Made by a program: the position numbers and the translations under genes
Assembly: GCA_951406725.2 (NCBI GenBank)
Contig: OX597819.1
Coordinates: forward strand, 101,122,001 to 101,186,000
Direction: 5' to 3'
Source of the DNA: Octopus vulgaris
Taxonomy: Eukaryota
Length of the DNA: 64,000 nucleotides
The notes under the pieces: model-generated
Seen by the model: the letters and a program-made list of their open reading frames with translations, nothing else
Told to the model about the DNA's origin: nothing
The model's database searches: none
In this document: in pieces, positions 2,636-2,978 of the stretch
Position numbering within the stretch: position 1 is the first letter of the stretch
Layout: the number at the start of each line of letters is the position of its first letter

Positions 2636-2978
2636 AAACAATTGCAGTGTGGAAGGTGTTTATAAGGCATTTAAGAAACACACAAAATCGTTAGATTCAC
2701 TTCAACATTTAAATTTAATTTGTCAAAATATTTTCGTCGCTTTGAGACCGCGACCAGTTCACTGACAAAACTTCGTGCTGCATCTGTTTTGTCAGTGAAC
2801 AGGTCGCAGTCTCAAAGCGACGAAAATATTTTGACAAATTAAATTAAAATGTTGAAGTGAATCTAACGGTTTTGTGTGTTTCTTAAATGCCTTATACACA
2901 CCTTCCACGCAGCAATTGTGTTCGTTCCAGCACACGATCTCAGGTCAAGTCAGTCGCTATGCAAGTACATCTCCGTAA
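2636..2978. mobile_element. Fold-back PLE-derived element (arms 2636-2771 and 2786-2919, tail to 2978) inside (TA)n
   Basis: ~135-bp arms with about 8 mismatches and a 14-nt spacer. A third truncated terminus lies at 2537-2619, and the tail end GCAAGTACATCTCCGTAA recurs inverted at ~42815-42832. Confidence 0.85.
2788..2838 (+). ncRNA. Type I minimal hammerhead ribozyme, G3C8 core variant
   Basis: TTTGTCA / GTGAACA-G / GTCGC-AGTCTCAAA-GCGAC / GAAA / ATAT / TT / TGACAAA: 7-bp helix I, 5-bp helix II, palindromic loop III. An inverted copy is in the left arm. Confidence 0.7.

Follow-up and report, generated by a model that had tools for sequence, protein, structure and literature searches.

Introduction

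In the hammerhead ribozyme G8 bears the 2'-OH that acts as general acid, and the C3-G8 pair is regarded as nearly fixed. Exchanges at positions 3 and 8 have reportedly been worked on by Przybilski and Hammann, and an article by Lunse et al. in RNA Biol is said, by its title, to deal with small hammerhead variants that are associated with Penelope-like elements (PLEs) and cleave as dimers. Exchange of the pair to G-C is described as the only double mutant that rescued this region in a saturation screen (PMC9901934), and as partly restoring a G8C mutant (PMC8495972). Covariation at 3-8 is also described for natural hammerhead core variants (Perreault et al. 2011, PMC3088659), the text of which gives U3-A8 only.

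The closest described systems are the minimal type I hammerheads of metazoan PLEs (Cervera and de la Pena 2014, PMC4209133). As described in that text, they resemble the motif presented here in being type I motifs located in the pLTR, with a minimal palindromic helix III, an unpaired base between positions 9 and 10.1, a G10.1-C11.1 pair and a known U3-A8 covariation, and in occurring mostly as solo truncated copies, with pairs on opposite strands; cutting by these minimal motifs is given as weak even in dimers. The Poseidon PLE of Anolis carolinensis (Frangieh et al. 2024, PMC11167929) is similar in its hammerhead near the ORF start, its AT-rich targets and its two reverse transcriptase (RT) start sites inside the ORF, which give rise to an optional tail. 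According to the text on Poseidon, an engineered C3G/G8C exchange partly rescues protein-assisted cutting, cutting is not needed for insertion in vitro, and RNA reads ending at the cut site are lacking. Here a related motif with a G-C pair at 3-8 is described from a 64,000-nt stretch of Octopus vulgaris DNA, referred to below as the window.

Structure of the motif

The GUGAACA core with an extra G that a preliminary description had reported at 2788-2838 of the + strand is present in the sequence as described. The components of the motif are as follows.

2788..2838, + strand: minimal type I hammerhead motif with a G3-C8 core (sequence, fold, and structural parse beside 11 clade families)
2795..2802, + strand: core G3 U4 G5 A6 A7 C8 A9 and the extra G 5' of helix II (sequence, family counts, 12/12 families)
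2803..2821, + strand: helix II (5 bp) and a 9-nt loop II that depends on the subfamily (fold, subfamily comparison)
2822..2831, + strand: the GAAA box and the palindromic half of helix III (2825-2830), with the cut predicted after U17 (2831) (sequence, structural parse)

Helix I is formed by 7 bp between 2788-2794 and 2832-2838 and helix II by 5 bp between 2803-2807 and 2817-2821. Between them lie G3 (2795), C8 (2800), A9 (2801) and the extra G (2802), followed beyond helix II by G12-A15.1 (2822-2825), the palindrome AAUAUU (2825-2830) and U17 (2831). The position of the cut was taken from hammerhead numbering, and the structural parse agrees with the earlier placement after 2831. The + strand copy contains all of the core letters U4, G5, A6, A9, G12, A13 and A14, the A15.1-U16.1 pair and H17, and the fold together with covariation in the clade indicates a three-way junction with helices I and II. 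The literal C3 and G8 of CUGANGA are absent, positions 3 and 8 being a Watson-Crick G-C pair.

The minimum-energy fold of the 51-mer contained helices I and II only (z -2.3), and within the natural 5' 200 nt these two helices had pairing probabilities above 0.9, with 0.67 for the outer pair. Helix III consists of 2 bp round a 2-nt loop, which cannot close in a monomer and requires a second copy, so that the earlier statement that all helices form holds for helices I and II but not for helix III.

The motif is genuine and not a chance resemblance. A hammerhead descriptor gave one match in the window compared to a mean of 0.07 in 60 local shuffles of it, and genome-wide (2.8 Gb) a 25-nt pattern of the motif gave 6,740 matches with G3 and 201 with another base, reversed controls giving 0. 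G3 and C8 are therefore the family's own letters. Searches against Rfam, at the gathering score and also at E up to 10, gave no hammerhead family for the window motif, the matches being of hairpin type alone and below the gathering score. Rfam thus misses the motif, but the exchange at 3-8 is not the sole cause, since canonical C3-G8 relatives likewise gave no hammerhead match and Rfam has little power here.

The insertion in the window

A 134-nt inverted repeat, overlooked in the preliminary description, contains the motif in its right arm. The insertion and its surroundings comprise the following features.

2786..2978, + strand: direct arm, a pLTR copy without its first ~14 nt and with the long ('tail') 3' end (inverted-repeat search, copy comparison)
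2887..2979, + strand: first 31 codons of a PLE RT/endonuclease ORF, broken off at the tail end (22/31 residues identical to the ORF start of the full-length copy L181)
2638..2785, - strand: inverted arm, beginning at the family's fixed 5' end (2785), with the short, tailless 3' end (134-nt arms 95% complementary; sequence)
2719..2769, - strand: second hammerhead copy, G3-C8 retained, A9 changed to U (2756) (sequence, fold; the descriptor gave no match)
2541..2620, - strand: third fragment of the same family, more truncated, with the diagnostic letters of a younger subfamily and hammerhead-free (subfamily columns)
2978..3041, no strand: (TA)n flank, the usual target of the family (most copies flanked alike)
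2500-2537, no strand: second (TA)n tract

Read-through RNA of this locus was modelled as a hairpin of -209 kcal/mol in which nearly all bases of the motif are paired, and because of this the window copy is predicted to be inert. Its two hammerhead copies are on opposite strands and therefore cannot form a dimer together. The 134-nt inverted repeat with (TA)n flanks, and the Rfam matches to hairpin types, could also describe a hairpin or miniature inverted-repeat DNA element whose palindromes produced the hammerhead shape by chance. This reading is highly improbable and is ruled out by the linkage to the ORF and by the positional homologues: the unit runs on into a PLE ORF, its arms are unequal copies that meet at their 5' ends, and relatives carry canonical hammerheads at the same place.

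Other repeats were observed elsewhere in the window. A second inverted pair at 22012-22379 (163-nt arms, 88%) probably represents another PLE family and contains on the + strand a canonical-looking minimal hammerhead, with a CUGAGGA core from 22254, an extra A and a 5-bp helix II. The arms at 45168-45764 and 48283-48880 (525 nt, 99% complementary, 2.5 kb apart, (TA)n-flanked) resemble those of a young insertion of PLE type that includes an inverted 5' copy. A two-copy tandem of 101 nt at 21192-21390 resembles what we take to be an RT C-terminal fragment, and one of 251 nt at 39340-39821 resembles what is presumably a SINE.

The parent element and its copies

In the parent element the motif is located in the pLTR, 55 nt upstream of the start of an ORF encoding RT followed by a GIY-YIG endonuclease, and in long copies the unit also lies ~1 kb downstream of the endonuclease end and upstream of a continuous ORF. 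The full-length copy L181 has two same-strand motif copies at positions 1742 and 6003, 4.3 kb apart. In the protein P0001 the endonuclease was matched by Pfam GIY-YIG (25.4 bits, cut-off 22.6); Pfam RT gave no match on P0001 itself, whose RT motifs were read by eye and whose homologues are annotated as RT. The single ORF with RT before the endonuclease is that of a PLE with a C-terminal endonuclease, and the pLTR duplications, inverted 5' copies and optional tail are likewise those of PLEs. A C-X2-5-C-X2-C linker before the endonuclease is given as a feature of the Neptune/Nematis clades (PMC8557442). The linker of P0001 is C-X3-C-X2-C, and judged by this linker the element is a PLE of Neptune/Nematis type, the RT trees holding no named reference elements.

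A 32-mer from the start of the ORF had 4,429 exact matches in the genome. Among 82 copies picked by a downstream anchor, 46 have their start no more than 12 nt from a single fixed 5' end, and the 3' ends form two classes, 34 short and 46 with a tail of ~57 nt, which fits the internal RT initiation demonstrated for another PLE (PMC11167929). Most copies are flanked by (TA)n. In 51 of 55 head-to-head pairs one arm is tailed and the other short, an arrangement described for PLEs; an origin of the two arms from two different RNA templates was rejected as a rule, the loop type differing in only 2/35 pairs.

The fixed 5' end of the short copies is preceded (L181:1690-1722) by a branch-point-like CTAAC, a pyrimidine tract and YAG, which is CAG in old copies and TAG in young ones, and a G precedes the AG in 29 of 49 counted starts, some of them from the inverted arm. 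The fixed 5' end could possibly be a splice acceptor marking the end of an intron, as the upstream letters would suggest, but the copies start with the AG itself, often with one additional G, and a transcription start with a copied cap fits better.

In an abundant subfamily (L306-L335) the 3' strand of helix I is lengthened by a 2-nt insertion, and 5 pairs stay intact. At L052:1-1430 two copies of the element are inserted beside a long C2H2 zinc-finger ORF.

The 3-8 pair in related families

Motifs were compared in 12 families of one PLE clade, three from the same genome and the others from metagenomes. The region downstream of the ORF was inspected by eye at 15 of the 31 metagenome loci, ten having the motif (two of them duplicates) and five lacking it, and a scan of the remaining 16 gave no convincing motif; nine distinct metagenome families with the motif just after the ORF were thus obtained. 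The scans did not require pairing at 3-8, candidates being chosen by eye for position and shape. The pair is Watson-Crick in all 12 families (7 C-G, 4 U-A and 1 G-C), indicating that G3-C8 is the compensatory state that had been proposed for it. All three states occur within the one genome: G-C in the window family (family 1), C3-G8 in family 2, which has 58% protein identity and many intact copies, and U3-A8 in family 3. In RT trees the three families of the genome form one supported clade in which families 2 and 3 are sisters, and U3-A8 appears at separate places.

The extra G before helix II is found in 12/12 families, as is a self-complementary helix III half, with 4/6 positions in family 2 and 6/6 in the window family. 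Compensatory changes occur in helices II and III. Homology of the motif and its covariation are well supported by these alignments, and the positional homologues uphold the original view of the window motif as a hammerhead. The motif of L215 was re-parsed by eye, and the L230 copy has A at position 12. At L215:4966-5016 this relative has C3-G8 together with GAAU in place of the box, which was read by eye as a flip to U15.1-A16.1.

In three clade families the conserved A9 is replaced by C, followed by G (L171:1637-1644, L345:903-910 and L217:2497-2504); two of these are sister families and the third is a relative. Family 2 has many 99%-identical intact frames of 1,312 codons, so that the A9C core is present in a recently active element. 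The occurrence of C9 in three families suggests, from the sequences, that the core may tolerate damage in this clade.

A G3-C8 core on the family 2 scaffold had no match in the genome. Relics of C3-G8 within family 1 were also sought, and none was present among the matches listed (100 of the 201 non-G3 matches); for both the G8 pattern and the non-G3 pattern, C3-G8 was absent from the first 100 matches listed. Copies with an unpaired G3·G8 were found, ~232 genome-wide or near 3% by a slightly looser pattern, making them about ten times commoner than the reverse change at position 3, where C3 amounts to ~0.3% (10 of 100 listed among the 201 non-G3 matches). Several subfamily backgrounds carry G8, and some insertions have it in both arms. 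Of the old-lineage long copies that were typed, 2 of 7 have G8, and of the young-lineage long copies none. Templates without a 3-8 pair must therefore have been copied. The G8 copies were not significantly more diverged (0.030 vs 0.024, p 0.24), and G3·G8 as the ancestral state was set aside because the tree of old-lineage copies lacks resolution.

These ~230 copies could be read as remains of an inactive G3·G8 intermediate on the way from C3-G8 to a natural, active and selected G3-C8 hammerhead in an animal retrotransposon, the intermediate surviving because retrotransposition of short copies does not need cutting. This history is doubtful. If it were true, three sister families would hold all three 3-8 states together with a fossil of the crossing.

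Conservation of the motif

Majority letters were compared between an old lineage (5 copies) and a young lineage (13 copies), 6 of 24 loci without a matched pLTR having been dropped. No change was found in the 42 columns of the core and helices. Loop II had changed at 4 of 8 columns, third codon positions at 53 of 293 and the non-repeat 3' UTR at 53 of 314 (Fisher p about 0.001 for the core and helices against these free classes), with the proviso that the loop II changes are possibly not independent and that pLTRs may be exchanged between lineages. A neutral divergence of ~17% predicts ~7 changes in 42 positions. The leader, spacer and 30 nt upstream had 6 changes in 92 columns, for which the comparison with 0/42 gives p about 0.1 as a rough estimate; the adjacent pLTR is therefore also slow, and the conservation is not specific to the ribozyme.

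Slow change of the neighbouring DNA is one of the points in favour of a fold that is kept for a non-catalytic role, either through overlap with an internal promoter a short way past the start site or as a signal for binding or packaging by the PLE protein, with G3-C8 left over from a once-active ribozyme. Counted from the fixed 5' end, the core lies at +24 to +31, the majority of copies derive from uncut RNA, and the text on Poseidon describes hammerhead mutants with unimpaired insertion in vitro (PMC11167929), all of which would agree with such a role. A DNA promoter leaves unexplained the pairing at 3-8 in 12/12 families and the covariation of the stems around a free loop II, however, and all other core letters of family 1, including A9, are canonical. 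A non-catalytic role is possible, though on the unlikely side.

The preliminary description had proposed conservation of GTGAACA across genomic copies as a check, and here the outcome went against it. With subfamily columns removed, individual copies diverge by 2.0% in the core, 2.4% in the helices and 2.2% in the spacer, so that the core is no better conserved than the spacer. Even decay is what dead insertions should show, and conservation at the level of copies was rejected as a test of function, since dead copies decay neutrally. The equal rates (15/742 post-insertion changes in the core vs 49/2,264 in the spacer) and the spread of G3·G8 templates would also suit a motif that has lost ribozyme function and is decaying, in which G3-C8 is a chance end point too recent for erosion. 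Neutral decay after insertion is expected under every model, however, the lineage comparison should then have given ~7 changes and gave 0, and all 34 young-lineage rows with an endonuclease end and a downstream motif have G3-C8. Simple decay is accordingly improbable, more so than a non-catalytic role.

Cleavage footprint and dimer formation

Copies starting at the predicted cut site were examined by re-reading the alignments by eye. Approximately 14 of 30 examined (from 102 matches) start there, with 3 more ambiguous, compared to ~7-9 of 30 (from 98 matches) ending at a control position four bases upstream, and 3-4 of 30 (from 406 matches) at a control two bases downstream. Starts at the cut site are about twice the upstream control and similar to the downstream one, and there is therefore no clear genomic footprint of cutting. 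A peak of copy 5' ends at the cut site was not established, no sharp peak rising above the controls. In the set of 82 copies, 8 start at family positions 58-70, some of which are internal deletions, and 46 reach the uncut 5' end.

The dimer was modelled at -23.8 kcal/mol, which is 2 kcal/mol less stable than two monomers at -26.0 kcal/mol. Dimer formation through the palindrome, as originally suggested for this motif, is a published mode for PLE hammerheads (PMC4209133), but the copies in the window are on opposite strands, and of the 10-nt palindrome no more than the inner 6 nt are usable for helix III. The dimer partner would instead be the second pLTR of a full-length element such as L181.

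Discussion

Both the ribozyme and the element that carries it are of known kinds, and the window motif is a well-supported variant of the ribozyme core. Taken together, the analysis makes it somewhat probable that this is a minimal PLE hammerhead with a G-C pair at 3-8 that would act as a slow and conditional self-cutter, either as a dimer or with the element protein, in full-length RNA. Transcription would start 16 nt ahead of helix I, at the fixed 5' end, and the element RT would initiate at two sites inside the first ~30 codons, copying mostly uncut RNA back to the fixed 5' end and giving copies of ~150 and ~208 nt, which would often be inserted into (TA)n in pairs, head to head. Cutting at U17 would be important solely in the processing of the long tandem transcript that full-length elements make, which contains two copies of the motif. 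The ribozyme would be dispensable for the thousands of short copies derived from uncut RNA, which would decay neutrally, and the fold would be kept by master elements.

A high-copy natural family with G3-C8 would mean that evolution uses an exchange known from the bench. Hammerheads are undercounted by searches whose pattern is fixed as CUGANGA or UUGANAA, and some PLEs listed as hammerhead-free may carry one. One genome offers a related family in each of the three states (G-C, C-G and U-A), which together form a test set for whether PLE hammerheads are needed for transposition.

In a search of the literature covering text, no report of a natural G3-C8 was found, which does not prove its absence from print, and the sole match to 'G3-C8' was an engineered variant (PMC3884650). 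The 56-motif alignment of metazoan PLE hammerheads (Fig. S3 of PMC4209133) is without G3-C8, in contrast to the G-C pair at 3-8 here, and the consensus given there has H as the extra base with one example of G, whereas G is present throughout this clade. In the text on Poseidon G3-C8 is a laboratory mutant (PMC11167929), while here it is the natural state of a family. The motif described here also differs from that of Poseidon in lying wholly upstream of the ATG, and the associated protein has a Neptune/Nematis linker (PMC8557442). The extra base between 9 and 10.1 is already published as a general feature (PMC4209133), as is U3-A8 (PMC4209133, PMC3088659), and neither is new. The class of mechanism is thus one already known, no new system being added, and what is gained by comparison is a variant and a test system.
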